Assembly: GCA_964423425.1 (NCBI GenBank)
Contig: CAYRES010000004.1
Location: forward strand, 136,256 to 200,255
DNA: 64,000 nt
Direction of reading: 5' to 3'
Source: an uncultured Gaiellales bacterium
GTDB lineage: Bacteria; Actinomycetota; Thermoleophilia; RBG-16-64-13
Shown here: positions 17,993 through 42,902 of the stretch, in pieces
Layout of the letters: the number at the start of each line of letters is the position of its first letter
How positions within the stretch are numbered: position 1 is the first letter of the stretch
The notes under the pieces: generated by a model
The model's input: the letters and a program-made list of their open reading frames with translations, nothing else
Database searches by the model: none
What the model was told of the DNA's origin: nothing
Translations under genes and position numbers: made by a program

Positions 17993-18018
17993 GCCGGGTC
18001 CAGTTGAAGCCGGCCGCT

Positions 18019-19135: not shown

Positions 19136-19218
19136 GGCAGGATCCCCGCAACCGTCGCGCCTTACCGCAGTGTAAGAGGTGCTTCGGCAGTTTGCAACAT
19201 TGGGATACACTGTGCCCC

Positions 19219-22202: not shown

Positions 22203-22233
22203 TGCGTCACCTCCTACGCGTTCACATGGTCCA

Positions 22234-24201: not shown

Positions 24202-24340
24202 CGGCGCACTGTGTTTCAAGGCGGGTGCTGGGCTCAGATGAGGGAATTCGAGCCGACGGAAGAGGCGTGGGCGTCAAGGGGAGCGCGGGCAGGGTTATCA
24301 GTCGATGGTCATGTCGGCCGAGAGCGAGGAGAGGTAATCC

Positions 24341-24964: not shown

Positions 24965-25085
24965 CCGATCTGAGGAGTGGCGGATTGGGGAGGTCGGGTC
25001 GATCGGCCTGCAGGCCTCGGCGGAGAAGTGGGCTGCATGAAGGCGTGCACAAGAGGAGTCTGCGGAGCGTGGGGAAGGAGCGCGC

Positions 25086-26066: not shown

Positions 26067-26082
26067 GGGTGCAGAGCACGTC

Positions 26083-27042
26083 GTGCGGAGCAGGGAGGAT
26101 TGGGTAGTGAGCTTCGAGCCTTCCGGGGAAAGGTACAAGGGTCGGATTCGTGAGGTGCGGTTCGCCGGCTTGGTCCTGGGGGGAGAGGAAGCCTTTCCCT
26201 TCCACTACTTCGACGGCGCCATGCCGCATGTGCCCGCAGTGGGCTTCGAGGTGTGGGACACGCGTCCAGAGGAGTGGCCGCCGGCGCTGATGGACGCCTA
26301 CGGTGAGGCGCTCGCCGATCCTCTCGCCTGGACACGCAAGGTGGTGGAGGAGTTCGGCGCCGAAGCTCTGTATCTACGGCTCATGAGTGCCGATCCGCAC
26401 GGAGAGAATCGGCCCCTCGACGAGGTCGTGACCGGTGCCGTCCGAGTAGTGGCCTCAGCCAGGGTGCCGGTCATCGTCTCCGGCCCCGGCGACCCCGACA
26501 CCGACGTGGAAGTGCTACAGGCGGTGGCAGAGGCGCTGAAGGACACTCCGGTTCTCCTTGCTTCGGCTGAGGAGTCCAACTACCGGGCTGTTGGTGCTGC
26601 CGCCCTGGCATACGGCCATGGTGTGGTGGCTTTCAGCCCCATCGATGTGAACCTCGCCAAGCAACTCAACGTACTCTTGGCCCGCCTGGGCGTATCCGAG
26701 GACCGGATTCTCATGGATCCCACCTCGGGAGCTCTGGGATACGGACTCGAATACTCCTATACCGTGTTCGAACGGAGCCGGCTCGCCGCGCTCACCCAGA
26801 ACGACACCGCCATGCAGGCTCCTATCGTCGCTGTGGTCGGTCCCGATGCCTGGAAGGTCAAGGAGGCGAGGGCGGGCCGTGAAGAGCTCCCGGGCACGGG
26901 TGACCCCGAGCTCCGAGCCGTCATGTGGGAGGCACTCACTGCCGTGCCTCTGATGCTGGCGGGCGCTGAGCTCCTCATCGTCCGACATCCCCGGTCCGCG
27001 TGGCTGGTGCGCGAGGTTGCCGGTTTGATGGCTGGGGAGTAG
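26083..27042 (+). CDS. acsD: corrinoid/iron-sulfur protein small subunit (AcsD/CdhD family)
   Basis: 319 aa with TIM-barrel CdhD/AcsD-type sequence (YLRLMSADPHG, DPTSGALGYGLEYSY). Sits next to acsB and acsC. Confidence 0.9.
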   Translation: MRSREDWVVSFEPSGERYKGRIREVRFAGLVLGGEEAFPFHYFDGAMPHVPAVGFEVWDTRPEEWPPALMDAYGEALADPLAWTRKVVEEFGAEALYLRLMSADPHGENRPLDEVVTGAVRVVASARVPVIVSGPGDPDTDVEVLQAVAEALKDTPVLLASAEESNYRAVGAAALAYGHGVVAFSPIDVNLAKQLNVLLARLGVSEDRILMDPTSGALGYGLEYSYTVFERSRLAALTQNDTAMQAPIVAVVGPDAWKVKEARAGREELPGTGDPELRAVMWEALTAVPLMLAGAELLIVRHPRSAWLVREVAGLMAGE

Positions 27043-27046
27043 ACCG

Positions 27047-29242
27047 GTGCCCTGTCTTGCCGAACAGGGCACGTGCCTTTCGACAGGGGGTGGCGCTGGG
27101 GTACTTTACGCTCTTCTCGAACAGGCACGCCTCTGCCTTGACGAGTTCGAGTCAGCACCACCTACAGCGTCTGAAGCCGGCCCTGTGACCCACACGGAGT
27201 TCCTGCCGGTGGCTTCGGCAGTCTCGGGGATCGAGATTCGGACTCCCGGTGACGCGGAGAAGGCGCTCTCCCAGCTGGAGAGAAGAGCGAGACGTTCGCT
27301 TGACCGGGGAGCTTTGAATCGGGTCCGGGAGAGGGACTTTGATGGATGCGACGAGCGCCTGGGCCTGGTGGGTCTGGCGGCTGCCGAGATCATCGCGGCC
27401 GCATGGGTTGGCCGCGGCGCTGTGCGGGAAGCTGGATGTGGGTCGGAAGCGGGAGATCGGTGGGAACCGGGACTCCTCGACGACCGCCTGGTGCGGTCGT
27501 GGACCATGGAGCTCCTGCAGGGCAGGAAGGCCGGAACCGCACTTCTCATCGGTGAGGCCGCGCGGGGCGACGGTGGAGCGGCCGTCGCCCGTGCTCTCAG
27601 GGCGGCGTCACTCATCGTGTTCTCGGCCGCCCCCTGCAGTTCCCTGTTTGACCCGGGGCCGAGCCGAGAGCCGGGCGGGAGGTCCCCGAGCCGGAGTGAA
27701 GCTTTCTTCGCCGGCTTCGCTCTGCGCTTCGCCGCCCTTGCCGGTGGCCCAGCGGCGTTTGGCCCAGCGGCCCTGGCGGCGTGGATGCGAGGGCGGGCGC
27801 CCTTCTTCGCGCTACTTCTCGGTCCTGTGGGCGACAGGGAAGCTCTTCTTCTTTCGGGACTCCACAGTCTGGGCATTCCCATCATCCGGCGTGACGCGAT
27901 CGGGCCGCTCGGTAGGGGCGAGTGCCCGGGCGAGGAGCGCAGCAGCACACCCAACTCGTGGGTGCGTTCTGTGCTGCGGGAGGGCGGCATCCAGGTGCCT
28001 GTCGACCCACCGCGTATGCCGGTGGCCTGCGGCCCCGAGTTCGGGGGGGAGCGCGTGGTCGGAAGGGAGGTGTGCTGGCAACTCGGTTCTCCGCACTGCA
28101 ACGGGGTGGAAGTCGTGATCGTATCGCGGAACGTGGGCGAGGATGGAGTGAGGCTGATACCCACCGGTGCGGACAGGGAGATCGCTGCCGGTGCCCGGCT
28201 GCCGCTGGGTCTCATGGTGGAAGTGTCGGGCAGAGAGATGCACGACGACTTCGCTCCGCTCATGGAGCGCCGACTGCACGAAATCCTGAATTCCGTGCGT
28301 GGCCTCGTACACATGGGAGGCAGAGATGATACAGGCCTCGTCGTCTCCCACGACTCCTGGGCGGCCGGACTGACGCTGGAGCATGTGGCCCTGTATGTTC
28401 ACGCACGACTGCACTCCCTCTTTGCGCCTGTCGTCGACTGCATCCGGGTCACCGCCACGACGGAGGGCCGCGCAGTGGAAGAGCTCGCCGGCCGGGCGCG
28501 CACATTGTTCGAGAAGCGCGACCGCCGCGCGTGCTCCCTCCGAGACGAGGACGTGGACGAGTTCTATTCGTGCGCCATCTGCCAGAGCATCGTTCCGTTC
28601 CACGTGTGCGTGCTGAGCCCGGAGCGTCCCGGCCCCTGCGGATGCTTTACGTGGGTAGACGCGCGTGCCGGCTATCGCCTCGACCCTACCGGTCCCCACC
28701 GGCCCATATCGAAGGGGGTGGTGCTCGATGCGAGGCTTGGCAGATTCGCCGGGGTCGATTCCTTCCTGCACCGGGCTTCTCAAGGGCGGGTGAATGCAGC
28801 GGGCTTGTATTCCCTCATGCATGATCCGGTGAGTTCCTGTGCCTGTTTCGAGCTTGTGACCGGGATCCTGCCGGCGTGCGGCGGGGTTATGGTGGTGGGC
28901 TCACGTGACGAGGGGCCTACCCCAATCGGTCTCAGCCTGTCCGAGCTCCGGGAGATCGTGGGCGGGGGAACCTCCACGCCGGGTTGTGTGGGTCACTCCA
29001 AGCGTTACCTGGTGAGCCGGAAGTATCTGGCCGCCGAGGGGGGCATCGCGAGGGTGGTGTGGATGCCGGAACGCCTGAAGAACGAGATGGCTCGGGCGTT
29101 GGAAGAGGCCGCAGGAAGGGCCGGATGCGCCGGGCTTCTGGAGAAGATCGCCACCGAGGCGGTCACGGTGGAGGAAGCCGAACTTCGGGCCTATCTGGAG
29201 CACGTGCAGCACCCGGCCCTCACGATGCCGCCTCTGTTGTGA
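27047..29242 (+). CDS. acsB: acetyl-CoA synthase catalytic subunit (AcsB / CODH-ACS beta, A-cluster protein)
   Basis: A-cluster motifs FYSCAICQSIVPFHVCVLSPERPGPCG and SSCACFE, then GGGTSTPG, GGIARVVWMP and a C-terminal HPALTMPPLL, all colinear with Moorella AcsB as I recall it. The N-terminal ~300 aa are diverged but retain AAEIIAA and ALLIGEA-type blocks. GTG start at 27047 is uncertain. Confidence 0.92.
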   Translation: MPCLAEQGTCLSTGGGAGVLYALLEQARLCLDEFESAPPTASEAGPVTHTEFLPVASAVSGIEIRTPGDAEKALSQLERRARRSLDRGALNRVRERDFDGCDERLGLVGLAAAEIIAAAWVGRGAVREAGCGSEAGDRWEPGLLDDRLVRSWTMELLQGRKAGTALLIGEAARGDGGAAVARALRAASLIVFSAAPCSSLFDPGPSREPGGRSPSRSEAFFAGFALRFAALAGGPAAFGPAALAAWMRGRAPFFALLLGPVGDREALLLSGLHSLGIPIIRRDAIGPLGRGECPGEERSSTPNSWVRSVLREGGIQVPVDPPRMPVACGPEFGGERVVGREVCWQLGSPHCNGVEVVIVSRNVGEDGVRLIPTGADREIAAGARLPLGLMVEVSGREMHDDFAPLMERRLHEILNSVRGLVHMGGRDDTGLVVSHDSWAAGLTLEHVALYVHARLHSLFAPVVDCIRVTATTEGRAVEELAGRARTLFEKRDRRACSLRDEDVDEFYSCAICQSIVPFHVCVLSPERPGPCGCFTWVDARAGYRLDPTGPHRPISKGVVLDARLGRFAGVDSFLHRASQGRVNAAGLYSLMHDPVSSCACFELVTGILPACGGVMVVGSRDEGPTPIGLSLSELREIVGGGTSTPGCVGHSKRYLVSRKYLAAEGGIARVVWMPERLKNEMARALEEAAGRAGCAGLLEKIATEAVTVEEAELRAYLEHVQHPALTMPPLL

Positions 29243-29361
29243 GGGGTGGACACCCCGGGCGAACTGTGGCTTCCGGTGTGGCGGACGGCAGGACGTCCTA
29301 GTTCCCGCCCTCACGGTCGGCTATCCTTGGGGGAGGAGATGGAACGAGAAAGGAGACCGCC

Positions 29362-30717
29362 GTGGCCCTGAGTGGGCTACAGATCTTCAAGCTGCTTCCA
29401 AAGACGAACTGCAAAGACTGCGGGTATCCCACCTGCATGGCTTTTGCCATGCAACTCGCCGCCGGCAAGGTCCGCGTGGAGGCGTGCCCTCATCTCCCCC
29501 AGGAAGCGGGAGCACAGCTCTCCGACGCTGTCTCTGCCCCTGTGTCCCGGGTCACAGTGGGGTCAGGGGCAAGCGCTCTGGCGATCGGTGAAGAAACGGT
29601 GTTGTACCGGCACGAGAAGCGCTTCGAACACGCTCCCGGGCTGGCGGTTCTTGCCGGCGGCTCCTTGAGCGACGTCGAATTTGCGGAGCGCCTCGAGGCT
29701 TTCTCCGCGCTCACTTTCGAGCGGGTGGGCGAACCGCTTCGCCCGAACATGCTTGCTATCAGCGCCTCCGACGGCGCCGTACTGGAGGCGCGGGTGGCCC
29801 GCGCTGCGTCTTTGGATGCAGCAGTGAAGGCGGCCCTCATCGTGATGCACGACGACCCGGCCGTCCTGCGGCGTGCCTGCGCGCCTGTGGCCGACGGGCG
29901 TCCGCTCCTGTATGCGGCCGATCCCACGAACTGGCGTGATATGGGGGCTCTCGCCCGCGATCTGGGGGCGCCGCTTGCGGTGAAGGCCGCGGGCATAGAA
30001 GAGCTCATCGGGCTGGTGGAGAAGCTCTCCGGAGCCGGGGTGGAGCAGCTCGTGCTCGATTCGTCCCCCGTCGATGTGCGGGCCGCTGTGCGAGACCAGG
30101 TGTTCGCCCGCCGGGCGGCGGTCAAGAGTCGCCTGCGCTCTCTGGGCTACCCCACGATCGCCTTTGCCTGCCGTCTTGCCTCCGACCCGGCATTGGCTGC
30201 GGTCGTCGCCGGGGTTCTCCTCTGTCGCTACGCCGGCATCATCGTGCTCGACACCGTGGATCCGGCGCTCTGGCTTCCCCTGTGCGTGCTGAGTCAGAAC
30301 ATCTACACCGATCCCCAGAGACCCATGCAGGTAGAAGAGGGCGTCTACCCCATCGGGGAGCCGGGCCCGGACAGCCCGGTGCTCGTCACCACCAACTTCT
30401 CGCTCACCTACTTCACCGTCTCCGGCGAGGTGGAGGCCAGCCGGGTGCCGAGTTGGCTGCTGGTGATGAACGCGGAAGGCCAGTCGGTGCTCACGGCGTG
30501 GGCGGCGGGCAAGTTCGTGCCGGAGGCCATCGCCGCCTTCATCCGGCGGAGCGGTATCGAGGAGAAGGTGGGCCATCGTCGGCTCGTCATTCCCGGTTAC
30601 GTGGCCCAGATAAGCGGGGAACTGGCCGAGGAACTATCGGGGTGGGATATCGAGGTCGGGGTGCGGGAAGCAGTGGATATCCCCCGCTACCTTCGTTCAC
30701 TGGTGGGTTCGGGATGA
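29362..30717 (+). CDS. acsC: corrinoid/iron-sulfur protein large subunit (AcsC/CdhE family)
   Basis: N-terminal [4Fe-4S] motif KTNCKDCGYPTCMAFAMQLA...CP, followed by TIM-barrel and Rossmann-like corrinoid-binding regions. 451 aa. Confidence 0.92.
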   Translation: MALSGLQIFKLLPKTNCKDCGYPTCMAFAMQLAAGKVRVEACPHLPQEAGAQLSDAVSAPVSRVTVGSGASALAIGEETVLYRHEKRFEHAPGLAVLAGGSLSDVEFAERLEAFSALTFERVGEPLRPNMLAISASDGAVLEARVARAASLDAAVKAALIVMHDDPAVLRRACAPVADGRPLLYAADPTNWRDMGALARDLGAPLAVKAAGIEELIGLVEKLSGAGVEQLVLDSSPVDVRAAVRDQVFARRAAVKSRLRSLGYPTIAFACRLASDPALAAVVAGVLLCRYAGIIVLDTVDPALWLPLCVLSQNIYTDPQRPMQVEEGVYPIGEPGPDSPVLVTTNFSLTYFTVSGEVEASRVPSWLLVMNAEGQSVLTAWAAGKFVPEAIAAFIRRSGIEEKVGHRRLVIPGYVAQISGELAEELSGWDIEVGVREAVDIPRYLRSLVGSG

Positions 30718-31394
30718 TCATCGCCAGGCAGAAACCCTTTACCGAGGTGCTGGAAGCCCTGGGTGATGCGCGCCGCGTCTACATCGTGGGTTGCGGCGAG
30801 TGTGCCACGCAGACGGCCACCGGGGGCGCGGAGGAGGTCGCCGATCTGGCGAGGCGTTTGGAGGAAGAGGGCAAGTCGGTGGTCGCGGTCGATGTGGCCC
30901 ACAGTGTGTGCCAGGAGCTCGACATCAAGCGTCTGTTTCGGGCGCACGGGGAGGCCGTGGAGGCTGCCGATGTGTTTCTCGTGCTTTCGTGCGGTGCCGG
31001 CTCACAGGCCGTGATCGAAGCCACGGAGAAGAGGGTGGTAGCGGGTACAGATACGCTCTTCTTGGGCAATGTGAGGCGCCACTTCGACTACCAGGAGAAG
31101 TGCTCCCTGTGCGGTGACTGCGTCATCGATCGTTTCGGCGGCGTCTGCCCGGTCGTGCGTTGCAGCAAGGGCCTGCTGAATGGACCCTGCGGAGGCGCCA
31201 ACCACGGGCGGTGTGAGGTGGACGATGCTCGGGAGTGCGCTTGGACGATCATATACCGTCGCTTGGAGGCACAGGGACGTCTCGATGACCTGCGAACCAT
31301 TCACGGCCCCAAGGCGTGGGATGGTGTGCAACGCCCCGGCCGGGCCGACTGGCGGGCGGAGAAGAAGGAGAAGAGGCGACGGAGCGGGGAGTGA
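30714..31394 (+). CDS. metV: methylenetetrahydrofolate reductase C-terminal-domain protein (MetV, Fe-S/zinc-ribbon subunit)
   Basis: 226 aa and Cys-rich (GCGECATQ, CSLCGDCV, CPVVRCSKGLLNGPCGG, CE...CAW). ATGA overlaps with acsC upstream and with metF downstream. Confidence 0.88.
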   Translation: MIIARQKPFTEVLEALGDARRVYIVGCGECATQTATGGAEEVADLARRLEEEGKSVVAVDVAHSVCQELDIKRLFRAHGEAVEAADVFLVLSCGAGSQAVIEATEKRVVAGTDTLFLGNVRRHFDYQEKCSLCGDCVIDRFGGVCPVVRCSKGLLNGPCGGANHGRCEVDDARECAWTIIYRRLEAQGRLDDLRTIHGPKAWDGVQRPGRADWRAEKKEKRRRSGE

Positions 31395-32359
31395 ACACCT
31401 TTCGATGGGCGCTCGAGGCGGGCCGGTTTGTCGTCACCGGCGAGGTCGGCCCCCCCAAGGGCACCGACGTCCGGCAGATGCAGGACACACTCGACCTCCT
31501 CATTCCCGCGGTGGACGCCCTCAATGTCACCGAGAACCAGAGCGCCGTCATGCGCATGGGCTCCCTCGCCGTCTCCCACGAAGTGGTGCTCAGGGGGGGT
31601 GAGCCCATCTGCCAGGTGGCGGGCCGGGATCGCAATCGGCTTGCACTGCAGAACGATCTCCTGAGCGCCCATTTCTTGGGCATACGTAACGTGCTTTGCC
31701 TCACCGGAGACCACCCTCTGCTGGGCGACCACAAGGCGGCCAAGCCCGTCTACGATTTTGATTCGGTGAACCTGGTGCAGTGCGTGAAGAATCTGAATGC
31801 GGGCCGCGATTGGGCGGGCAATGAACTCCAAGGTGCCACCGACTTCTTCGTGGGCGCCGTGGTGGCCCCCGACGCCGATCCTCTTGAGCCCCAGTTCATG
31901 AAGTTCCAGAAGAAGGTCGAGGTGGGCGCCGACTTCTTCCAGACCCAGGCGGTATACGACATGGAGGCATTCGCCCGATTCATGGAGCGGGTGCGTAGCC
32001 TGGTTGATGGCGGGCGGGTGAAGGTTCTGGCCGGTTTGGTGGTCTTGGGCAGCGTGGGTATGGCGCGCTACATGAACGACAGGGTCTCCGGCATCCGGGT
32101 GCCGCCCGCCGTCCTTTCGGAGATGGAGGATGCCGGCAAGGAGGGCGCACGTGCGAAAGGCATGGATATCTGTGCCCGCCAGATCCGTTTCTGTCTGGAC
32201 AACCGTGTGTGTGACGGAGTACACATCATGGCTCCCGGACGGGAGTCTCTCATTCCCGACATCCTTGCCCTGGCAGGCATCGGTGGGCCGAGTCTGGCAC
32301 TCGGGGCTGAGGCCCCCGACGATTGCGAGAGGCGAGACGCAGCGAAAGGATCCCGATGA
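31391..32359 (+). CDS. metF: methylenetetrahydrofolate reductase
   Basis: 322 aa. GEVGPPKG..., NVTENQSA and LCLTGDHP motifs of the acetogen-type MetF. GTG at 31391 overlaps the metV stop. Confidence 0.9.
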   Translation: MNTFRWALEAGRFVVTGEVGPPKGTDVRQMQDTLDLLIPAVDALNVTENQSAVMRMGSLAVSHEVVLRGGEPICQVAGRDRNRLALQNDLLSAHFLGIRNVLCLTGDHPLLGDHKAAKPVYDFDSVNLVQCVKNLNAGRDWAGNELQGATDFFVGAVVAPDADPLEPQFMKFQKKVEVGADFFQTQAVYDMEAFARFMERVRSLVDGGRVKVLAGLVVLGSVGMARYMNDRVSGIRVPPAVLSEMEDAGKEGARAKGMDICARQIRFCLDNRVCDGVHIMAPGRESLIPDILALAGIGGPSLALGAEAPDDCERRDAAKGSR

Positions 32360-33750
32360 GCGACACACCTCGCATTGTCATTCTGGGGAGCGGTCCCGGT
32401 GGCTACGTGGCCGGCATCAGGGCCGGGCAGCGAGGCGCCGAGGTCACAGTTGTCGAGAAGGACCTACTCGGCGGCACCTGCCTCAACTGGGGTTGCATCC
32501 CCACCAAAGCTCTTCTGGCGAGCGCCGAGGCACTGCACAAGGCCCGCTCCGGAGAGGAGTACGGGTTCACCGTGAGCGGTGACATACAACCCGATCTGGG
32601 GCGGATGATGGAGCGCAAGGATGCCGTGGTCACGCAGCTTCGTGACGGCATCGCCAAGTTGTTCCGAGCTCACGGCGTGACGCTGGTCCGGGGCAGGGGC
32701 AGGTTGATCTCACGGGGAGTGGTGGAGGTACAGGGAGAGGAGGGCACCACCACGCTGGAGGCCGACCGGGTGATTCTGGCCACGGGATCGGGGGCGGCGG
32801 AGCCGCCGTTCTTCGACTTCTCCCAGCCGACTGTGCTCACGTCGAAGGAAGTCTTCTCGCTGCGTGAGATCCCCGCCTCCATACTGGTGGTGGGTGCCGG
32901 AGCCATCGGCTGCGAGTTCGCCTCCTTCTTCAGGGAGCTGGGCGTAAAGGTGACGCTGGTCGACATCATGCCGCAGGTGCTCCCACAGGAAGACACCCGG
33001 CTCGCCCGGCAGTTCCAGCAGGTGCTGCGGAAGCGGGGGGTGGAGGTGCTCGTCAAGACCAAGGTCGAGCGGATCATCGACTACGGGCCGGACCGCGTCA
33101 CCGTGGAGTTGACCGAAGGCAAGGAGCTCAGCGCGGCGGCGATCCTGGTTTCGGTGGGCCGCCAACCCAATTCGGCCGGGCTCGGCCTTGAGGAGGCCGG
33201 GGTGAAGACCGACGAGCGTGGTTACGTGCTGGTGAATGAGCGGCTGGAGACGAGCGCCCCCGGTGTGTACGCCATTGGTGATCTCAACGGTGGTCTTCTT
33301 CTTGCCCACGTCGCTTCCTACGAAGGGCTGGTGGCCGTGGAGAACTGCCTGGGCGGAGAGAGGGAGCGCGACCTGCGAGCGGTGCCTCACTGCGCCTACT
33401 CCTTCCCGGAGATCGCGAGCGTGGGCCTCACCGAGGCACAGGCCCGAGAAGAAGGTTTGAAGCCGCTCACCGGTACGTTCCGCTTGGGCGCATTGGGCAA
33501 AGCCCTTGCTCTCGGCGAAGCGGCCGGCTACGTGCAGGTCGTGGCCGATGCCGAGTCTGATCGAGTGTTGGGCGCGAACATGATGGGGCCTCACGTGACT
33601 GATCTCATCCACGAAGCGGCGCTCGCCATACGTATGGGCTTGACCACGAGAGACCTGGGCGATACGGTACACGCGCACCCGACCATCGCGGAGGCGCTCA
33701 TGGAGGCCGCGCATGACGTTCACGGCGAGTCTGTTCACGTCGCCGGTTGA
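32356..33750 (+). CDS. lpdA: dihydrolipoyl dehydrogenase (E3-type pyridine-nucleotide disulfide oxidoreductase)
   Basis: GSGPGGY FAD motif, redox disulfide GGTCLNWGCIPTK, NAD motif VVGAGAIGCE and C-terminal HAHPT(I)AE. The ATG overlaps the metF stop (ATGA). Confidence 0.92.
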   Translation: MSDTPRIVILGSGPGGYVAGIRAGQRGAEVTVVEKDLLGGTCLNWGCIPTKALLASAEALHKARSGEEYGFTVSGDIQPDLGRMMERKDAVVTQLRDGIAKLFRAHGVTLVRGRGRLISRGVVEVQGEEGTTTLEADRVILATGSGAAEPPFFDFSQPTVLTSKEVFSLREIPASILVVGAGAIGCEFASFFRELGVKVTLVDIMPQVLPQEDTRLARQFQQVLRKRGVEVLVKTKVERIIDYGPDRVTVELTEGKELSAAAILVSVGRQPNSAGLGLEEAGVKTDERGYVLVNERLETSAPGVYAIGDLNGGLLLAHVASYEGLVAVENCLGGERERDLRAVPHCAYSFPEIASVGLTEAQAREEGLKPLTGTFRLGALGKALALGEAAGYVQVVADAESDRVLGANMMGPHVTDLIHEAALAIRMGLTTRDLGDTVHAHPTIAEALMEAAHDVHGESVHVAG

Positions 33751-33808
33751 CTGAGCTGCGGCGGCCGCAGGCGCCGGCCGGCACGACAGAGGTACTAGCT
33801 GACAGCGC

Positions 33809-34792
33809 ATGCCCGACTCCGTCTCTCGTTCGACATCGGACCGCCTGCCGGTCCCTCACACGCGCAAGCCGCCCTGGCTGAAGAAGAAGCTGCCTCGCCC
33901 GGGGGCCGTTGGCTCTATGCGCGCCCTTCTGCGCGAGGAGAGGCTGCACACTGTCTGCGAGAGCGCCTTGTGCCCGAACCTGGGGGAGTGCTTCGCCCGC
34001 CACTGCGCCACCTTCATGATCATGGGCGCCGTGTGCACGCGTGACTGCAGGTTCTGTGCCGTTGGGGGAGGTGTCCCTGCAGCGCTCGACCCCGAGGAGC
34101 CGCGTCACGTGGCCGATGCGGCGGCCAGGCTGAATCTCAGCCACATCGTCGTCACCTCAGTGACCAGGGACGACCTCGCCGACGGGGGTGCAGCCCACTT
34201 TGCCGCCACCATCCGGGCCGCGAGAGAGGCGGTACCCGGCTCCAGCGTGGAGGTTCTCATCCCCGACTTCAAGGGAGAGGAGAGCGCACTGCATGTGGTG
34301 CTGGCTGAGCAACCCGACGTGGTCAATCACAACGTGGAGACGGTCCCGAGGCTCTACCGGGAGGTTCGTCCGCAGGCCGACTACGGCCGTTCGCTGGACG
34401 TACTCGCCGCCTGTGCCGCTTCTGGATCGTGCGTGACCAAGACCGGCCTCATGGTGGGGCTCGGGGAGACCCGGACCGAGGTGCGGGAGGTGTTGCGCAA
34501 CGTCGCGGACAGGGGGGTCGATGTGGTCACCATCGGCCAATACCTGCAGCCTTCGTCCGCCCACCTGCCGGTGAGGGAATTCGTGTCCCCCGAGGTGTTC
34601 TCCGGGTACGCGCAGTGGGGGCAGGAGACGCTGGGGCTGATTGTGGAGAGCGGTCCCTTCGTGCGGAGCTCTTTCCGTGCCGGGGAGTCTCTCGCGCGAG
34701 TGAGGAAGAGACATGGTGAACGCCTTTCTGCCGAAGGAAGCGGGCGGAAGGCACGTACTGAGGGCCGTGCCCCCGAGACTCAGGGTTCGTGA
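33809..34792 (+). CDS. lipA: lipoyl synthase
   Basis: N-terminal auxiliary-cluster motif CESALCPNLGEC and radical-SAM motif CTRDCRFCAV. Carries an extra ~30-aa basic C-terminal tail. Confidence 0.93.
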   Translation: MPDSVSRSTSDRLPVPHTRKPPWLKKKLPRPGAVGSMRALLREERLHTVCESALCPNLGECFARHCATFMIMGAVCTRDCRFCAVGGGVPAALDPEEPRHVADAAARLNLSHIVVTSVTRDDLADGGAAHFAATIRAAREAVPGSSVEVLIPDFKGEESALHVVLAEQPDVVNHNVETVPRLYREVRPQADYGRSLDVLAACAASGSCVTKTGLMVGLGETRTEVREVLRNVADRGVDVVTIGQYLQPSSAHLPVREFVSPEVFSGYAQWGQETLGLIVESGPFVRSSFRAGESLARVRKRHGERLSAEGSGRKARTEGRAPETQGS

Positions 34793-34803
34793 GAGGAGCC
34801 GTC

Positions 34804-35631
34804 TTGCTGGCTATCGCTGAGAACATCAACATCACCAGCCGGGCCGTGGCGCAGGCGCTCGACGCGCGGGACGTCGCCTTCATCGCCGGGTTGGCCCGAC
34901 GCTGCGAAGAGGCGGGTGCCGACGCTTTGGAGATCAACGTGGGATCGGCCCGCAAGAATGGGCCCGAGATCATGAGGTTCGCCGTCGATGCGGTGGCCGA
35001 GGCCTCGCGGCTTCAGCTGTGTCTCGACACCACCAACCCCGCCGCCATGGAGGCCGGTATCGTACGGTGTCTCGAGCTCGGTTTGCCCCGGCCCATTGTG
35101 AATTCTTTTTCCGCCCAGCCAGACAAGATCAGCTCGATTCTCCCTTTAGCTTCCACGTATGAGTGTGAAATAATTGGGCTCGTGATGGGGCAGGCCGTTC
35201 CCCTCGATACCGAGGAGAGGCTTGCCACAGCGTACGAGCTCGTGATGGCAGCCAACGAGCTCGGTATCCCAAATGAGAGGATATTCATAGATCCTATTGT
35301 CTTGCCAGTGGGGCTCGATGTGGGCCAGCAGCACGCGGTAGCCGTGCAGGAGGCCATACGTTCGGTGGGCGAGATGTTCGACCCACCGGTGAAGACCACC
35401 TGCGGTCTCTCCAACGTCTCAAACGGTGCCCCGCGGGAAGTGCGGTCGGCCCTGAACAACGTGTTTCTTGCGATGCTGAGTGCTCAAGGCATCAGCTCTG
35501 CGATAGTCGATGTACTCGATCCGGCGCTCATGCGAACGGTGAGGCTTGCGAGAGCCTTCCGCAATGAGAGTCTCTATTCGGTGTCAGACGCAGAACTCGG
35601 TCACCCCCCCAATCCGGAGGTCCGCACATGA
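34804..35631 (+). CDS. acsE: methyltetrahydrofolate:corrinoid/iron-sulfur protein Co-methyltransferase (MeTr)
   Basis: Pterin-binding TIM barrel colinear with Moorella MeTr as I recall it (AENIN, LEINVG, LCLDTTN, IVNS, IDPIVLPVG, GLSNVS). TTG at 34804 is preceded by AGGAG. GTG at 34789, overlapping the lipA stop, is an alternative start. Confidence 0.88.
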   Translation: MLAIAENINITSRAVAQALDARDVAFIAGLARRCEEAGADALEINVGSARKNGPEIMRFAVDAVAEASRLQLCLDTTNPAAMEAGIVRCLELGLPRPIVNSFSAQPDKISSILPLASTYECEIIGLVMGQAVPLDTEERLATAYELVMAANELGIPNERIFIDPIVLPVGLDVGQQHAVAVQEAIRSVGEMFDPPVKTTCGLSNVSNGAPREVRSALNNVFLAMLSAQGISSAIVDVLDPALMRTVRLARAFRNESLYSVSDAELGHPPNPEVRT

Positions 35632-36197
35632 CGAACGGCCAACAGCCGGGTGGCGCCACCGCGGAGGCTTTTGACTACGCCCCCGTTGAGGAGCTGCTTG
35701 ATAAGTACCGCGGTACGAAAGGCGCGCTTATTCCGCTCTTGCAGGGAACGCAGGCCGCTTACGGATTCCTGCCGAAAGAAGCCATGGTGAAGATCTCCGA
35801 GGATATCGGCGAGCCTCTGGCCAGTGTTTATGGAGTGGCGACGTTCTATGCTCAATTCCGCCTCATACCGCGGGCGAAGAACGTGGTGCGTGTGTGCCAC
35901 GGCACCGCCTGTCACGTGTCGGGTGCTCCGCTGGTGAGCCTCGAGGTGGAGCGGCATCTGGGTATCGGTGACGGAGAGAACACTGAAGACATGATGTTCA
36001 CGCTCGAGGCTGTTGCCTGCTTGGGCGCGTGCGGCATGGCGCCCGTCATGATGATCAATGACCGCACCTACGGCAAGCTCTCCCCCGACAAGGCGGTGAA
36101 GGCCATCGTGGACTTCCGGAAGGCCGAGAGTAACGGCGGTGGCGAGGCTGAAGCCGCGGTACCCGCGGCCGAGGCCGAGGGTGGGGAGGAGGCTTAG
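35628..36197 (+). CDS. NuoE/HydC-like [2Fe-2S] thioredoxin-fold subunit
   Basis: Motifs VCHGTACHVSG and ACLGACGMAP (C-x4-C...C-x3-C). 189 aa. Overlaps the acsE stop. Confidence 0.9.
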   Translation: MTNGQQPGGATAEAFDYAPVEELLDKYRGTKGALIPLLQGTQAAYGFLPKEAMVKISEDIGEPLASVYGVATFYAQFRLIPRAKNVVRVCHGTACHVSGAPLVSLEVERHLGIGDGENTEDMMFTLEAVACLGACGMAPVMMINDRTYGKLSPDKAVKAIVDFRKAESNGGGEAEAAVPAAEAEGGEEA

Positions 36198-38087
36198 ATG
36201 GCGAACACGACTGCTCTCAAAAAGCCTGAGCCCCGGCATCCCCGGTTGGGTGTGCCGAAAGTCGAGATAGGCATCTGCATGGGTACGGGTGGTATTGCCG
36301 CCGGGGCGGAAGACGTACTCACCGCCTTCGAGGAGGGTCTGGCCAAGACCGAGGTGTACGGCATCATCAAGCCCAGGGAGTGCGCCTGCGATGAGGGCAC
36401 CGGGTCGAGCATCACCGCCACCGGTTGCCGGGGCATGTGTGCCATGGACGTGCTGGTCGACGTCACCACACACACCAACGGGCAGGCTCGGACGGTCACC
36501 TACGGCACGGTGACACCCGCGATGGTGGAGAAGATCATCGAGGAGCACATCGTCGGTGGAGAGCCGGTCCACAAGTGGATCGTGCTATCGGCCGAAGAAC
36601 CCACATCTCACAACGAGTTCTATGAGCATCAGGAGCGCTTGGTTCTGCGCCACTGTGGGCACGTGGATCCCGAGGATATCGACGACTACATTGAGCAAGG
36701 GGGCTACCTGGCGCTCCACAGGGTGCTTTCGGGCATGAGCGCCGACGAGGTGATAGAAGAAGTGCTCGCTTCCGGCCTGCGCGGCCGGGGGGGCGCCGGC
36801 TTCCCCACCGGGCTGAAGTGGCGCTTCGCGCGTAACGCAGAGTCCCCTGATGGCCAGAAGTACTTCATCTGCAACGGTGACGAAGGCGACCCGGGCGCGT
36901 TCATGGACAGGTCGGTTCTCGAGGGCGATCCACATGCCGTGTTCGAAGGCATGGCCATCGGTGGCTACGCGATCGGCGCGAGCGAAGGCTATATCTACGT
37001 GCGCGCCGAGTACCCCCTCGCGATCAAGCGTTTGAAGATTGCGCTCGAGCAGGCGCACGAGCGTGGGGTCATGGGCGACAACATCATGGGCTCCGACTTC
37101 TCCTTCCATATCAAGATCAAGGAAGGGGCAGGAGCCTTCGTCTGCGGCGAGGAGACGGCCCTCATGGGGTCCATTGAGGGGCGTCGGGGCATGCCCAACC
37201 TGCGCCCGCCTTATCCGGCGGAGTCCGGGCTCTGGAAGCGGCCCACCAACATCAACAATGTGGAGAGCCTCGCCTGTATCCCCTGGATCATAAGCAACGG
37301 CGCCGACGCCTTCGCGGCCCGAGGTTACGAGAAGTCAAAGGGTACGAAGGTCTTCGCCCTCACGGGTAAGATCAACCGCTCGGGCCTGGCTGAAGTCCCC
37401 ATGGGTCTCACTCTGCGTGATGTCATTTACAATATCGGCGGGGGCATCAAGAAGGGTAAGGCGTTCAAGGCCGTGCAGATGGGCGGCCCGTCGGGTGGTT
37501 GTTTGCCGGAGAGAATGCTCGACACTCACGTTGACTACGAGGAACTCGACGCCACAGGTGTCATCGTCGGCTCGGGCGGCATGGTTGTCATGGACGAGGA
37601 CAACTGTATCGTCGACACGGCACGGTACTTCTTGGAGTTCACCCAGGCAGAGAGTTGTGGCAAGTGTGTCCCCTGCCGGGTGGGCACCAAGCGTATGTTG
37701 GAGCTGCTCGGGCGCATCTGCGAAGGCAAGGGCCAGGTCGGCGACATTGAGCTCCTCCTGGAGTTGTCAGAGAACATCAAAGATGGCTCTCTGTGTGCCC
37801 TGGGCGGCACCGCACCCAACCCGGTGCTGACCGCGATCAAGTACTTCCGGGAGGAGTTCGAGGAGCACATCTACGAGCACAAGTGTCGCGCCGGCGCCTG
37901 TGCCGCTCTCGTCACCTACTACATCGACGCCGAAGCCTGTACGGGCTGTCGAGCCTGCTCGCGCGCCTGTCCGGTACAGGCCATCACCGGAGAGAAGAAG
38001 CAGACGCATTCCATCGACTCGGAGGTCTGCATTCGGTGCGGTGCCTGCTATGAGAAGTGTAGGTTCAACGCTGTGAGGAGGAAGTGA
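36198..38087 (+). CDS. NuoF/HydB-like NAD(P)H-binding FMN/Fe-S flavoprotein subunit with a C-terminal 2x[4Fe-4S] ferredoxin domain
   Basis: GRGGAGFPTGLKW, CNGDEGDPGAF and ESCGKCVPCR (N3 cluster) motifs. The C-terminus has CTGCRACSRACP and CIRCGACYEKC. The N-terminal thioredoxin-like domain is degenerate (see findings). Confidence 0.9.
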   Translation: MANTTALKKPEPRHPRLGVPKVEIGICMGTGGIAAGAEDVLTAFEEGLAKTEVYGIIKPRECACDEGTGSSITATGCRGMCAMDVLVDVTTHTNGQARTVTYGTVTPAMVEKIIEEHIVGGEPVHKWIVLSAEEPTSHNEFYEHQERLVLRHCGHVDPEDIDDYIEQGGYLALHRVLSGMSADEVIEEVLASGLRGRGGAGFPTGLKWRFARNAESPDGQKYFICNGDEGDPGAFMDRSVLEGDPHAVFEGMAIGGYAIGASEGYIYVRAEYPLAIKRLKIALEQAHERGVMGDNIMGSDFSFHIKIKEGAGAFVCGEETALMGSIEGRRGMPNLRPPYPAESGLWKRPTNINNVESLACIPWIISNGADAFAARGYEKSKGTKVFALTGKINRSGLAEVPMGLTLRDVIYNIGGGIKKGKAFKAVQMGGPSGGCLPERMLDTHVDYEELDATGVIVGSGGMVVMDEDNCIVDTARYFLEFTQAESCGKCVPCRVGTKRMLELLGRICEGKGQVGDIELLLELSENIKDGSLCALGGTAPNPVLTAIKYFREEFEEHIYEHKCRAGACAALVTYYIDAEACTGCRACSRACPVQAITGEKKQTHSIDSEVCIRCGACYEKCRFNAVRRK

Positions 38088-40801
38088 TGGCGGCCGTTCC
38101 TGAGACCGAGGAGAAGACCCTCACTCTGACCATCAATGGTCAGGAAGTTACGGCCTCTCCCGGCCAGACGGTGCTCGAAGCGGCGAGGAGTGTGGGTGTG
38201 GAGATCCCCACGCTGTGCCACGATCCGCGCCTCGAGCCGTACGGCGCCTGCCGCCTCTGCCTGGTGGAGATCGAGGGAGCCAGGGCGCCCATGCCCGCCT
38301 GCGCCGCGAAAGTCAATGACGGTATGGTGATACACACCAACACCGACAAGGTGCGCAAGCTCCGCAAGTTCGTGATCGAACTGCTGCTGAGCTACCACCC
38401 ACTCGATTGCCCGGTGTGCGAAGCGGCCGGAGACTGCCGGCTGCAGGATTACGCATACGAATACGGCGTGAGCGAGTCACCTTGGGGCTGGCACCCCTTG
38501 GACTTCCCTACACGCGACGACCACCCCAACGTGGCTCGCAACCCCAATCGGTGCATCCTCTGCGGTCGCTGTGTGCGCATCTGCCGTGAGGTGATGGGCA
38601 TCGGCTGTTGGGGTTTCAGCAATCGCGGATACGATACCATCATCGATACGCCCTACAACATGAGGCTCGAAGAGGTCGACTGCGTGTCGTGCGGGCAGTG
38701 CATCAGCACCTGTCCGGTCGGTGCCCTGAACATGAAGCGCAGCCGGCACGAGGCCCGTCACTGGCAGGTCAACAAGACGGTCACCACTTGCGGGTACTGC
38801 GCAGTGGGGTGCGAGCAACTCATGAGCACCTTCCGAGGTCGGCTCGTACGCGTGAGCGGGAAGATCGGCGAAGGCGTGAACAACGGCAACCTGTGCGTGA
38901 AGGGCCGTTTCGGGATGGACTACGTCAACTCCACTGAGCGCCTCACTGTGCCTTTGGTGCGCAATGAAGCCGGTGAGCTGGCTCCGGCCTCGTGGGACGC
39001 GGCGCTCGCGAGGGCGGCCGAGGGTCTGGCGGCAGCCAAGAAGAGTGGTGGCAAGAGCATCGCCGTGCTCGCGTCAGCCCGCTGCACCAATGAGGAGAAC
39101 TACCTGCTACAGAAGATGGCGCGGACGGTTCTAGGTACCCCGCACATCGACAGCGGCGCCCGCTTGGGTCAGGCTGCTGCCGTGGCCGGTCTGAGGTCCA
39201 CGCTCGGCTACGGGGCCATGTCGAACTCCATAGCCGACATCGCACAGTCCGACGTGATCTTCGTCATCGGCGCCAATGTGACCGAGGACCACCCCGTTCT
39301 CGGGCTCCAGGTGATACGGGCGCTTCGAGGCGGAGCCCGTGTGATCGTGGCCGAGCCTCGTCGCACCGACATCGCCAAGAGGGCAACGGCGCATCTCGCC
39401 CTCAATCCCGGTACCGACGCGGCCTTGCTCAGCGGCATGATGCGCCACATCCTCGACTCAGGTCTGGAGAACAAGGCCTTCATCGCTGAGCACACGGACG
39501 GTCTCGAAGCCCTGCGCGAGTCGCTGAGCGGCCTTACTGTGGAAGCGGCAGCGGAGGCCTGCGGCATTCCGGCCGCCGACATCCGCGACGCGGCCGAGGT
39601 GTATGCCGGCGCCGCCTCCGCGAGCATTCTCTTCGCTGCGGGCGTCACGCAGCAGGAGCAAGGCTTCACCAACGTGCAGGCACTGGCCGACCTCGCCCTC
39701 CTCACCGGCAATCTGGGCCGGCCCGGCACGGGAGTGAATGCTTTGTCCGGGCAGGCAAACGCGCAGGGAGCCTGTGACATGGGGGCGCTCCCCGATCTCC
39801 TTCCGGGCTATCGAGCCCTCGATGATGCCGAGGCCGTCAAGCAGGTGGAGAGTGTCTGGGGTTCCCGCATCGCGGACAAGAATCCGGGTAAGACGGTGAC
39901 GGAAGTCCTCGATGCCATAGAGGCAGATGAGATCAAAGCCATGTATGTGGTAGGAGAGAACCCTGTTCTCTCTGATGCGGGTCAAGAAAGGGTGCGGGCG
40001 GCCTTGAAGAAGCTCGGATTCCTCGTGGTCCAGGAACTCTTCCTCTCCGAAACCGGTGAGTTGGCTGATGTGGTGCTACCCGCGGCATCCATCGTGGAGC
40101 GAGAAGGCACCTTCACCAATACCGAGCGGCGCGTGCAACGGGTACGCCGGGCGCTCGACCCGGTTGCAGACAGCATGCCTGACTGGCAGATCATTCAGAT
40201 GCTCGCGCGCAGGCTGGGCGCATCGTGGGAGTACCCTTCGCCGCAGGAAGTATTTGCTGAGATAGCCAGGGCTGTGCCCCAATATGCCGGCATGAGCTAC
40301 GAGAGGCTGGAAGAGGGTGGCCTGCAGTGGCCGTGTGAGTCGGCCGATGATGAAGGCACCGCTGTGCTCTACGCCGACGGCTTCCCCGAGGGCAAGGCGT
40401 CGTTTGCGCCGGTGAACTACGTCCCTCCCTCTTTGCAGACCGACACGGCCTACCCCATCATGCTGCTTACAGGCTGCGAACGCGTACACTGCAGCACGGG
40501 CACCCGTTCGAGTCGTGCCCCCGGGCTCACGGGTCTCATCAACAGGGGTCGTCTCGAAGTGAATCCCAACGACGCGGAGCCCTTGGGCCTTGCTTCAGGG
40601 AGCATGGCACGTGTGACGAGCGAAGTTGGGACCATCGGCGCGGAGGTGTGGGTCACTCCGCAGGTGCCGCCGGGTGTTGCCTTTCTTCCCATTCACTTTG
40701 TTGACGCGGCGGCAAACACCCTGCTGCCCGCACGAGCCGATGCGGTGGTGAAGACTCCAGCGCTGAAGGCGGTACCGGTGAGGATAGAAGTCGCGGGGTA
40801 G
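38084..40801 (+). CDS. formate-dehydrogenase-alpha-like molybdopterin oxidoreductase subunit (NuoG-type Fe-S N-terminus + MopB domain); catalytic residues not conserved
   Basis: N-terminus: [2Fe-2S] CHDPRLEPYGACRLC, CPVCEAAGDCRLQ, CILCGRCVRIC and CVSCGQCISTCP. MopB domain: TTCGYCAVGC...C, TNEENYLLQKMAR, QGACDMGALPD, and a C-terminal beta-barrel. The active-site columns read ARLGQ and LSGQ instead of AR(V/L)(U/C)H and VRGQ. No in-frame TGA. Confidence 0.85.
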   Translation: MMAAVPETEEKTLTLTINGQEVTASPGQTVLEAARSVGVEIPTLCHDPRLEPYGACRLCLVEIEGARAPMPACAAKVNDGMVIHTNTDKVRKLRKFVIELLLSYHPLDCPVCEAAGDCRLQDYAYEYGVSESPWGWHPLDFPTRDDHPNVARNPNRCILCGRCVRICREVMGIGCWGFSNRGYDTIIDTPYNMRLEEVDCVSCGQCISTCPVGALNMKRSRHEARHWQVNKTVTTCGYCAVGCEQLMSTFRGRLVRVSGKIGEGVNNGNLCVKGRFGMDYVNSTERLTVPLVRNEAGELAPASWDAALARAAEGLAAAKKSGGKSIAVLASARCTNEENYLLQKMARTVLGTPHIDSGARLGQAAAVAGLRSTLGYGAMSNSIADIAQSDVIFVIGANVTEDHPVLGLQVIRALRGGARVIVAEPRRTDIAKRATAHLALNPGTDAALLSGMMRHILDSGLENKAFIAEHTDGLEALRESLSGLTVEAAAEACGIPAADIRDAAEVYAGAASASILFAAGVTQQEQGFTNVQALADLALLTGNLGRPGTGVNALSGQANAQGACDMGALPDLLPGYRALDDAEAVKQVESVWGSRIADKNPGKTVTEVLDAIEADEIKAMYVVGENPVLSDAGQERVRAALKKLGFLVVQELFLSETGELADVVLPAASIVEREGTFTNTERRVQRVRRALDPVADSMPDWQIIQMLARRLGASWEYPSPQEVFAEIARAVPQYAGMSYERLEEGGLQWPCESADDEGTAVLYADGFPEGKASFAPVNYVPPSLQTDTAYPIMLLTGCERVHCSTGTRSSRAPGLTGLINRGRLEVNPNDAEPLGLASGSMARVTSEVGTIGAEVWVTPQVPPGVAFLPIHFVDAAANTLLPARADAVVKTPALKAVPVRIEVAG

Positions 40802-41628: not shown

Positions 41629-41653
41629 AGCGGCCCCTGTCAATTGGATCGTA

Positions 41654-42769: not shown

Positions 42770-42902
42770 GTGATGTGCCTCATCCGGTACCTCTCTCCCT
42801 GGGGAGCGGCGCGTGAGAGCCCCAGCAATGTTGTGTTCGTCGTGCCCTTCACCTATCTTATAGTAGGAAGATGCGTGGCAGGAGCGAATATACGAGTCGG
42901 GT

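Follow-up and report, generated by a model that had tools for sequence, protein, structure and literature searches.

The window analysed here is a stretch of 64,000 nucleotides (64 kb) from an uncultured Gaiellales bacterium (Actinomycetota; GenBank assembly GCA_964423425.1, contig CAYRES010000004.1, positions 136,256 to 200,255 of the forward strand). It carries a Wood-Ljungdahl (WL) gene cluster, followed by genes for NuoE-, NuoF- and FdhA-like proteins. The last of these, which has the architecture of a formate dehydrogenase (FDH) alpha subunit but not its active-site residues, is the subject of this work. The three genes and the relevant parts of the third are listed below, with the means of recognition in brackets.

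35628..36197, plus strand: NuoE-like [2Fe-2S] thioredoxin-like subunit, BfuC (domain search)
36198..38087, plus strand: NuoF-like flavoprotein of the BfuB/HydB/NfnB type, with N-terminal extension, flavin mononucleotide, [4Fe-4S] and C-terminal 2x[4Fe-4S] ferredoxin domain (hidden Markov model matches)
38084..40801, plus strand: FdhA-like protein of the FdsA/FdhA type, BfuA/NuoG-like, without FDH active site (Pfam, TIGR01591, HMMER, AlphaFold)
38114..38932, plus strand: its N-terminal Fe-S region, residues about 11-283, with [2Fe-2S], His/Cys3 [4Fe-4S], two [4Fe-4S] and the MopB proximal [4Fe-4S] (Pfam and alignment)
39155..39172, plus strand: former CARxUH loop, now G358-A-R-L-G362-Q363, GGC...GGT CAG, where selenocysteine-encoding relatives have TGC...TGA CAC (alignment, codons)
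39653..39655, plus strand: H524Q (CAG) in the TQH motif (alignment, codons)
39740..39763, plus strand: former NPLRGQNNV block, now N-A-L-S555-G-Q-A-N-A560, with Arg to Ser, Val to Ala, Pro to Ala and Asn to Ala (alignment, codons)
40475..40477, plus strand: R798C (TGC) in the TGR motif, where the cap domain begins (alignment, codons)

Architecture of the FdhA-like protein

The open reading frame (ORF) encodes 905 amino acids from a GTG at 38084, contains no in-frame stop and overlaps with its start the stop of the NuoF gene. The true start is likely to be the ATG at 38087, since this codon is preceded by a Shine-Dalgarno-like GGAGGA (38077-38082) and since the identical database protein P0001, from an independent ENA record, has 904 amino acids; residue numbers would then be one lower. 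The protein is composed of the Pfam domains Fer2_4, NADH-G_4Fe-4S_3, Fer4_Nqo3, Molybdop_Fe4S4, Molybdopterin and Molydop_binding. It exceeds the cut-off of the NCBIfam FDH-alpha equivalog TIGR01591 (715 bits versus 666) and misses that of the NuoG equivalog TIGR01973 (435 versus 470). HMMER aligns it end to end with alpha subunits of NAD-dependent FDHs, among them 9wxb_B (E=9e-203) and R. capsulatus FdsA (6tg9_A, E=7e-199). Its AlphaFold model (predicted local distance difference test, pLDDT, 90.6; predicted template-modelling score, pTM, 0.90) matches solved FDHs with template-modelling (TM) scores of 0.94-0.96, the value for RaFDH being 0.96, and E. coli FdhH with a target-normalised TM score of 0.92. 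The complete FdsA/FdhA architecture that a preliminary description of this DNA had ascribed to 38084-40801 is borne out.

The four-domain MopB fold with proximal [4Fe-4S], characteristic of metal FDH alpha subunits, is present. Fe-S ligands are invariant across 38 aligned relatives. This concerns the [2Fe-2S] ligands (C45/56/59/73), those of the His/Cys3 cluster (H105/C109/112/118), those of the MopB proximal [4Fe-4S] (C236/239/243/271) and the ligands of the two remaining [4Fe-4S] clusters.

Replacement of the active site

Around the active site the alignment is free of gaps, with FdsA DTCARVCHSPTGYGL standing opposite a 15-residue stretch of the FdhA-like protein. The second block is likewise gap-free and places FdsA GVNPLRGQNNVQG opposite GVNALSGQANAQG. 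As residue-level reference for these columns R. capsulatus FDH (RcFDH) was used, not E. coli FdhH. Counted along the HMMER alignment, Gly362, Gln363, Ser555 and Ala560 correspond to RcFDH Cys386, His387, Arg587 and Val592, all named active-site residues (PMC7171172). The Mo/W ligand, Cys386 in RcFDH and selenocysteine (Sec) 140 in FdhH, is accordingly a glycine, and no TGA is present: the window reads GGT CAG at 39167-39172 and TCC at 39746-39748.

To describe the loss beyond these four positions, we considered MopB columns at least 93% invariant among 91 canonical (Cys-His-Arg) relatives, a proxy for contacts to molybdopterin guanine dinucleotide (MGD). The FdhA-like protein retains 81 of 91 such columns. 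The ten changed ones are G240A, C358G, C362G, H363Q, H524Q, P553A, R555S, N558A, V560A and R798C, nine of them confined to five conserved blocks (the CARxCH loop, TQH, NPLRGQNNV, TGR and the first Cys motif). By sequence position, columns 358, 362, 363 and 560 are or adjoin named RcFDH active-site residues. The preliminary description had reported the exchanges Sec/Cys to Gly, His to Gln and Arg to Ser; the inspected columns confirm each of them, but the loss is wider than these three residues, as C358, H524, P553, N558, V560 and R798 are replaced as well.

The exchange of His for Gln is by itself not diagnostic, because active B. subtilis ForC (YjgC) has Cys-Gln at the ligand and His columns; its Arg is retained. 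Taken by its residues, the FdhA-like protein cannot be a standard FDH.

Relatives with and without the active site

The Cys-His-Arg combination is found in only 45 of the 120 best database homologues, and about 46 of the 149 nearest 50%-identity cluster representatives are canonical. The closest group, here called clade A (P0002-P0009, 60-67% identity to the FdhA-like protein), has Asn/Gly, Gln/His/Ala/Glu and Ala/Ser at the three sites, and other residues of the former site also vary between close relatives (I/C/R). Lys273 is replaced by Arg in P0008, P0009 and P0268. Clades B and C constitute a larger actinobacterial group of about 50% identity, which reads IDHxEQAASE or AASDQALKK. Altogether, at least 9 clusters of clade A and more than 60 of clades B/C share the dead state, and more than 70 protein clusters have an unbroken ORF.

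Since protein databases hide TGA-containing genes, DNA of related loci was translated in search of Sec forms. Four were found, L009 (Thermoleophilia metagenome-assembled genome, MAG), L010 (Actinomycetota MAG), L089 and L090, with 59-65% identity to the FdhA-like protein. They read DHCARL-TGA-HSSTVAGL and retain His524, Arg555 and Val560, as well as Arg798 where the contig extends that far. L009 and L089 are short contigs with NuoF and FdhA only; L010 and L090 have the gene order of the window (AcsC/MetF-Lpd-LipA-AcsE-NuoE-NuoF-FdhA). In three of these loci (L009 3209-3268, L010 8909-8968, L090 9084-9143) a hairpin, GUCGCC-GGUCU-GGCGAC, lies 15 nt past the UGA, which is consistent with a bacterial element resembling the selenocysteine insertion sequence (SECIS). 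Its loop is that of the E. coli fdhF SECIS, and for this reason we regard the proteins as real selenoproteins. A relic SECIS is not demonstrable in the window, where the retained GGUCUG merely encodes conserved Gly-Leu.

At the seven sites 358, 362, 363, 524, 555, 560 and 798, Sec forms have TGC/TGA/CAC/CAC/CGC/GTG/CGC. Five of the seven substitutions in the window lie one nucleotide from these codons (TGC to GGC, CAC to CAG twice, GTG to GCG, CGC to TGC), and two require two steps (TGA to GGT, CGC to TCC). The loss of selenocysteine is recent. No intermediates, such as Cys at 362 or a retained His or Arg, were found among 166 loci; each locus has either the canonical residue or a replacement at every one of the seven sites.

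A missed selenocysteine, a frameshift or an error, the first of which had already been dismissed in the preliminary description, was rejected in view of the missing TGA, the uninterrupted ORF, the identical ENA protein and the seven coordinated substitutions.

It might be argued that the FdhA-like protein is still a working FDH or CO2 reductase with an unusual site, supplying formate for the methyl branch. It occupies the position of the true Sec-containing FDH of its relatives, it passes TIGR01591, no other FDH was found among the window ORFs scanned, and ForC tolerates the change of His to Gln. Against this, Cys/Sec, His, Arg and Val are replaced together with C358, H524 and R798, the replacements vary among close relatives, and relatives devoid of WL genes hold equally dead copies. 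E. coli FdhH with Sec140 changed to Ser is inactive, and Arg and His variants of RcFDH are severely impaired. We consider a working FDH very improbable.

Number of losses

Phylogenetic trees of different parts disagree as to how often the active site was lost. Neighbour-joining trees built from the whole protein or from its MopB half alone unite clade A with clades B/C and leave Sec forms outside (100% bootstrap). In the tree of the N-terminal half, clade A joins Sec forms (49/50), and in the NuoF tree it groups with L009, L010 and L020, clades B/C standing apart (A with B/C in 0/200). The grouping in the MopB trees is a probable long-branch or convergence artefact of shared acceleration, and two independent losses within the actinobacterial group are favoured. 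A single loss ancestral to all dead actinobacterial forms is provisionally rejected, as the N-terminal and NuoF trees contradict it.

A further family, headed by P0129, belongs to Chloroflexota (Dehalococcoidia). All of its 120 members are non-canonical, mostly with Gly358, Tyr362, Ser/Asn/Gly363 and Gln555. It is never sister of the actinobacterial forms (0/50 bootstraps) and, judged by these trees, certainly represents an independent loss. Another Chloroflexota protein (L085, 10001-12544), of 32% identity, has the ligand and His columns deleted and Trp at the Arg column. Still encoded after NuoE and NuoF, it is one more separate dead form.

Selection on the two halves of the protein

In pairs of canonical FDHs the MopB half is the more conserved one, with 87% MopB identity at 80-90% N-terminal identity. 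Clade A displays the reverse, 84% identity in the N-terminal half and 64% in the MopB half. Compared with 22 canonical outgroups, the Sec-containing sister L009 scores 0.51 (N-terminal) and 0.57 (MopB), the FdhA-like protein 0.50 and 0.47. The ratio of nonsynonymous rates (dN) of the MopB and N-terminal halves is 2.6-5.9 in clade A versus 0.6-1.75 in canonical pairs. Relative to synonymous rates (dS), dN/dS amounts to 0.08-0.25 for the MopB half (including 0.09 for one pair with dS of about 0.05), 0.03-0.11 for the N-terminal half and 0.04-0.13 for NuoF. After the loss, the MopB half accelerated about 3-fold relative to the Fe-S half and is still under purifying selection. The earlier statement that the cofactor-binding scaffold is well conserved is thus half correct, since the MopB half, measured against the Fe-S half, changes about three times as fast as in true FDHs.

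It follows from dN/dS and from the rate shift that the FdhA-like gene is not a pseudogene, but that it is not under the constraint of an ordinary enzyme either. Early decay of the gene, or an artefact of sequencing or assembly, would agree with the accelerated MopB half, and loss of the Sec machinery could precede loss of a TGA-encoded residue. Nevertheless, 905 codons are intact, whereas out-of-frame ORFs in the region do not exceed 190 amino acids, and P0001 is identical. The clusters of clades A and B/C share the state, dN/dS is far below 1, and most of the seven coordinated substitutions need only one nucleotide change from the Sec-form codons. Decay or artefact is therefore extremely improbable, and the preliminary description, which had argued against a decaying pseudogene, gains support from the intact ORFs, from dN/dS and from the 81 retained columns.

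The NuoE-NuoF-FdhA module

The NuoF-like protein (629 amino acids) is closest to Csac NfnB (9bov_B, 9e-240 over residues 72-627), and it further matches the BfuB proteins T. sibiricus NfnB, S. ovata StnB, NiFe-HydB and several HydB. The NfnB/HydB matches span residues 21-627 with E=1e-190 to 1e-240, and Fer4 domains are located at 574-625. The matches of non-bifurcating FdsB and Nqo1 break off near residue 554 and reach 1e-128 at best. The N-terminal thioredoxin-like domain and the C-terminal 2x[4Fe-4S] of BfuB are thus both present. BfuC and BfuA are encoded together with it, with overlapping start and stop codons, and stops and starts overlap or abut throughout LipA, AcsE, NuoE, NuoF and the FdhA-like gene, indicating that these five are translationally coupled. 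What is missing is the site or subunit for a third substrate, as the pterin site of the FdhA-like protein is without catalytic residues and no domain has been added.

NuoE, NuoF and the FdhA-like protein are thus predicted to form a soluble BfuABC/NuoEFG module without a third catalytic site. The domain content and gene order agree with the earlier proposal of a NuoG-like subunit working with a NuoE/NuoF-like flavoprotein. Because its NuoEF core is of the bifurcating type and a third catalytic site is lacking, the module would need a partner.

Comparison with known systems

The closest relatives in design are R. capsulatus FdsA (6TG9) and the Type 1 Fdh-Bfu, in which BfuA has a pterin site (Schut et al. 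2022, PMC9304861). The FdhA-like protein shares with them domain order, length, five Fe-S sites, 38-39% identity, TM scores of 0.95-0.96 and NuoE/NuoF-like partners encoded just upstream, and its direct selenoprotein ancestors are of this kind. It differs in the absence of the active-site Cys/Sec, His, Arg and Val, and no FdsD or FdhD gene was found nearby. FdhD is likewise absent downstream of FdhA in the Sec forms L090 and L009, where heme-synthesis genes and a LuxR-type regulator, respectively, are found. Unlike FdsB, the NuoF of the window is of the bifurcating type with C-terminal 2x[4Fe-4S].

With NuoG/Nqo3, including that of Nuo-Bfu and of M. smegmatis (8E9G), the protein has in common an FDH-derived MopB part without catalytic residues and, as proposed below, a role as Fe-S scaffold with NuoE and NuoF. 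In M. smegmatis NuoG, a GTP-like moiety occupies the former MGD site (PMC10068793). Full-length NuoG is also found among the nearest 50%-identity cluster representatives: the non-canonical P0137 is the NuoG encoded in a NuoE-NuoF(622 aa)-NuoG-NuoHIJKLMN operon, i.e. that of a Nuo-Bfu complex I. In contrast to NuoG, the FdhA-like protein is much nearer to true FDHs, of much more recent origin and part of a presumably soluble module, the last because the window contains no nuoA-D or nuoH-N genes.

NfnA/StnA of Nfn-Bfu (9BOV, 8OH5) is likewise a Bfu A subunit with an Fdh/NuoG-like domain and an incomplete pterin site, and NfnB is the closest match of the window NuoF. However, NfnA has an NfnL-like third-substrate domain for flavin adenine dinucleotide (FAD) and NADP(H) and a truncated MopB part, while the FdhA-like protein has all four MopB domains and none added. 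The pterin site of Csac NfnA is incomplete, shows no pterin density and was termed an "evolution remnant" (PMC11829005).

The most distant parallel is the Dehalococcoides FDH-like protein DET0187/OmeA, of the complex iron-sulfur molybdoenzyme (CISM) family, which carries Ser in place of the ligand, is devoid of FDH activity and is thought to act in electron transfer (PMC5736913). It too is an FDH homologue with replaced Sec/Cys ligand, but it is periplasmic/membrane and of the FdnG type, without NuoG-type N-terminus or NuoEF partners.

Proposed role of the FdhA-like protein

We infer, with reasonable though not full confidence, that the FdhA-like protein is a catalytically dead descendant of a Sec-containing, NAD/ferredoxin-linked FDH (Type 1 Fdh-Bfu), kept as a NuoG-like Fe-S scaffold. 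What the sequences show is descent from the Sec-FDH of a bifurcating-type complex, with loss of Sec/Cys, His, Arg and Val together with three further invariant residues around the Mo site. The molybdopterin half has since drifted faster while staying folded and under purifying selection, the five Fe-S sites and NuoE/NuoF remaining highly conserved. The protein may now serve as an Fe-S "Y-junction" scaffold, like NuoG of complex I or the remnant Fdh-like domain of NfnA. The resulting soluble NuoEFG/BfuABC module would move electrons among NAD(H), ferredoxin and a partner enzyme rather than to or from CO2/formate. That close relatives differ in their replacements is in keeping with a former active site no longer under selection.

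The former site might instead have been repurposed, with the protein binding bis-pyranopterin guanine dinucleotide (bis-PGD) without a protein ligand, as arsenite oxidase does, and catalysing another reaction fed by NuoEF. The columns retained, Lys273, His871 and Lys895 among them, the invariant ligands of the proximal [4Fe-4S], the dN/dS of the MopB half and the complete predicted fold speak for this. Moreover, clades B/C have the newly conserved IDHxEQAASE, with Glu/Asp at the ligand column. Against new selected chemistry stand the replacements of clade A, which differ between close relatives (N/G; Q/H/A/E; A/S; I/C/R), and the change of Lys273 to Arg in three homologues. The speed-up of the MopB half is specific to the lineage, no new conserved ligand-type residue is seen, and no gene for molybdenum cofactor (Moco) synthesis or Mo/W transport occurs among the scanned ORFs of the 64 kb. 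We regard a repurposed molybdo- or tungsto-enzyme as distinctly unlikely; the new Mo/W chemistry considered in the preliminary description fares poorly for the first of these reasons.

Gene neighbourhood

The FdhA-like gene closes a run of genes on the same strand, whose upstream part comprises the following.

19114..30717, plus strand: rest of the WL cluster, LarC, Fhs, RACo, a 171-aa ORF, FolD, AcsD, AcsB and AcsC (domain search)
30282..32359, plus strand: MetV and MetF, methylene-tetrahydrofolate (THF) reductase of the MetVF type, candidate partner (domain search)
32323..33750, plus strand: dihydrolipoyl dehydrogenase, Lpd (domain search)
33809..34792, plus strand: lipoyl synthase, LipA (domain search)
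34789..35631, plus strand: AcsE-like methyltransferase (pterin-binding), with 4-nt overlaps to LipA and NuoE (domain search)

The MetV ORF as listed (30282-31394, 370 aa) overlaps the end of AcsC at 30717, and its Pfam match begins at residue 254. MetV of relatives is called with 246-276 aa, and the true start probably lies at about 30.6-30.7 kb. The 171-aa ORF (24211-24726, plus strand, between RACo and FolD) has no Pfam match. ORFs at 9488-10624 (minus), 10569-11933 (plus), 15023-16279 (minus) and 17411-18676 (minus) are also without match and may not be genes.

Among ORFs of the 64 kb scanned with Pfam and NCBIfam, no catalytic subunit of carbon monoxide dehydrogenase (CooS/AcsA) was found, though AcsB, AcsC, AcsD, AcsE and RACo are present. 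Neither were a second FDH, a formate transporter or genes for Moco biosynthesis, Mo/W transport or Sec, and no tRNA-Sec was found in the window.

Behind the FdhA-like gene, up to Lon (40957-44042), lie a LuxR-type response regulator (minus), a hybrid histidine kinase with receiver (minus) and a protein with response-regulator and HD domains (plus). The regulator and kinase ORFs overlap by about 370 nt, and the regulator start is probably further downstream. A LuxR-type regulator directly follows FdhA in the Sec form L009 as well. On the other side, near the WL cluster, genes for an Fe/Mn superoxide dismutase and a DJ-1/PfpI protein (12034-13446) hint at oxygen exposure of the host.

Relatives of clade A have the same gene order as the window. 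In clades B/C the flanks match too (MFS, racemase, RNase PH, Ham1, LarC on one side, Lon, LexA, PGM, NadE and MetX/MetW on the other), but in most of these relatives LipA-NuoE-NuoF-FdhA stand alone between LarC and Lon, without WL genes there. A sub-group (P0030, locus L006) still has AcsC-Lpd-LipA-AcsE beside a dead FdhA resembling that of clade B, and its arrangement is intermediate between WL-bearing and WL-less loci. Since WL-less relatives retain NuoE, NuoF and the dead FdhA, the trio is retained independently of the WL pathway. The idea that dead variants form a WL-linked clade holds in part: the clade exists and some members have the WL gene order, but others have no WL genes at the locus.

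Compared with the WL-less loci L004, L005, L011, L016 and L017, the WL genes of the window (19114-35631) form two separate groups: LarC and LipA enclose Fhs to Lpd, and AcsE stands between LipA and NuoE. This points to either insertion in the lineage of the window or clean deletion in the relatives. LipA and LarC were also considered as functional partners and set aside, as nothing except synteny is in their favour.

A candidate partner

Among possible partners in WL-bearing genomes, MetVF is the strongest candidate because of recurrent operons in Chloroflexota and a remark in the literature. In all four readable Chloroflexota contexts (L168, L170, L171 and L172; about 8001-15900), five abutting genes encode a dead FdhA-like protein, NuoE, NuoF::GltD, MetV and MetF. 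Genes for a response regulator and a histidine kinase with GAF domain usually flank this operon. Yi et al. 2021 (PMC8515935) reported that in Dethiosulfatarculus, and "widely in Desulfobacterales and Chloroflexi", metFV is preceded by genes for NuoEFG homologues, and they termed the combination an unstudied "X type" of methylene-THF reductase that might bifurcate. As in the window, a dead FdhA-like NuoG homologue and NuoE/NuoF occur there together with MetV-MetF in WL-type organisms. Unlike in the window, the Chloroflexota proteins belong to an independent lineage with a conserved Tyr-Ser...Gln pattern, and their genes abut, while in the window three genes intervene between MetF and NuoE.

Coupling of the module to MetVF can be proposed only tentatively. 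The electrons would then flow into an NADH-linked, possibly also ferredoxin-linked, methylene-THF reductase of the "X type". In its specific form, in which the FdhA-like protein with BfuB and BfuC is the electron-input module of a bifurcating MetVF (2 NADH + oxidised ferredoxin + CH2-THF -> 2 NAD+ + reduced ferredoxin + CH3-THF), the proposal is doubtful. The role of an electron-transfer scaffold for MetFV, one of several suggested in the preliminary description, has at least gained independent support from the Chloroflexota operons and from the published remark.

Four observations weigh against our interpretation. First, the retained Lys273 (relay from Fe-S to pterin) and the cap-domain residues His871 and Lys895 leave room for a bound cofactor and some chemistry. 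Second, metV-metF of the window lie in the same-strand run, but Lpd, LipA and AcsE intervene before NuoE; this separation and the same order are already present in true-FDH relatives, so that the linkage may be inherited. Third, the NuoF of Chloroflexota is fused to Fer4_20 and Pyr_redox_2 domains (GltD/NfnB-like) and has no C-terminal ferredoxin domain, such as NuoF of the window possesses. Fourth, and weightiest with regard to MetVF, in clades B/C neither MetVF nor any other WL gene occurs within 10 kb of LarC-LipA-NuoE-NuoF-FdhA; as these WL-less relatives keep the trio without it, MetVF cannot be the universal partner.

This last finding would also agree with a module in which the BfuBC core and the Fe-S chain of the FdhA-like protein work on their own, without dedicated partner, as an electron buffer or as an NADH:ferredoxin (or NAD(P)H) oxidoreductase, the link to the WL pathway being purely historical. 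The trio persists at the same locus beside LarC and LipA, the C-terminal ferredoxin domain of NuoF is conserved, and an "overflow electron pool" has been suggested as the role of the dead-end A2-A4-A5 branch of NfnA (PMC11829005). On the other hand, all known Bfu enzymes employ a third substrate (PMC9304861), transfer from NADH to ferredoxin is by itself uphill, and purifying selection on about 670 MopB residues would be left unexplained. We consider a stand-alone module unlikely.

Implications

Dead FDH homologues in NuoEFG-type modules are already known, and the association of NuoEFG with MetFV is an idea in print. What is new is a full-length Type 1 Fdh-Bfu subunit without replacement catalytic domain, which arose from selenoprotein FDHs demonstrably recently, and probably more than once, in a single actinobacterial lineage. 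Its persistence where the WL pathway is missing and the quantified shift in constraint are new as well.

The protein also exposes a systematic error of annotation that touches WL pathway calls. It passes the curated TIGR01591, and dead relatives (P0007, P0271, P0277, P0344 and others) are named "formate dehydrogenase subunit alpha" by NCBI. The Chloroflexota family, non-canonical throughout, is likewise named FDH alpha, which amounts to systematic over-annotation. Claims of a complete WL methyl branch in these Actinomycetota and Chloroflexota may count an enzyme unable to make or oxidise formate.

In terms of evolution, the group would represent a recent, probably repeated replay of the FDH-to-NuoG transition that lies behind a core subunit of complex I, with living selenoprotein sisters available for comparison. 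In terms of bioenergetics, the linkage of a dead FDH with MetVF is a candidate for the electron donor system of MetVF-type methylene-THF reductases. If true, a bifurcating MetVF would be the long-sought energy-conserving step of the WL pathway, caught just after the conversion of an FDH into a scaffold.

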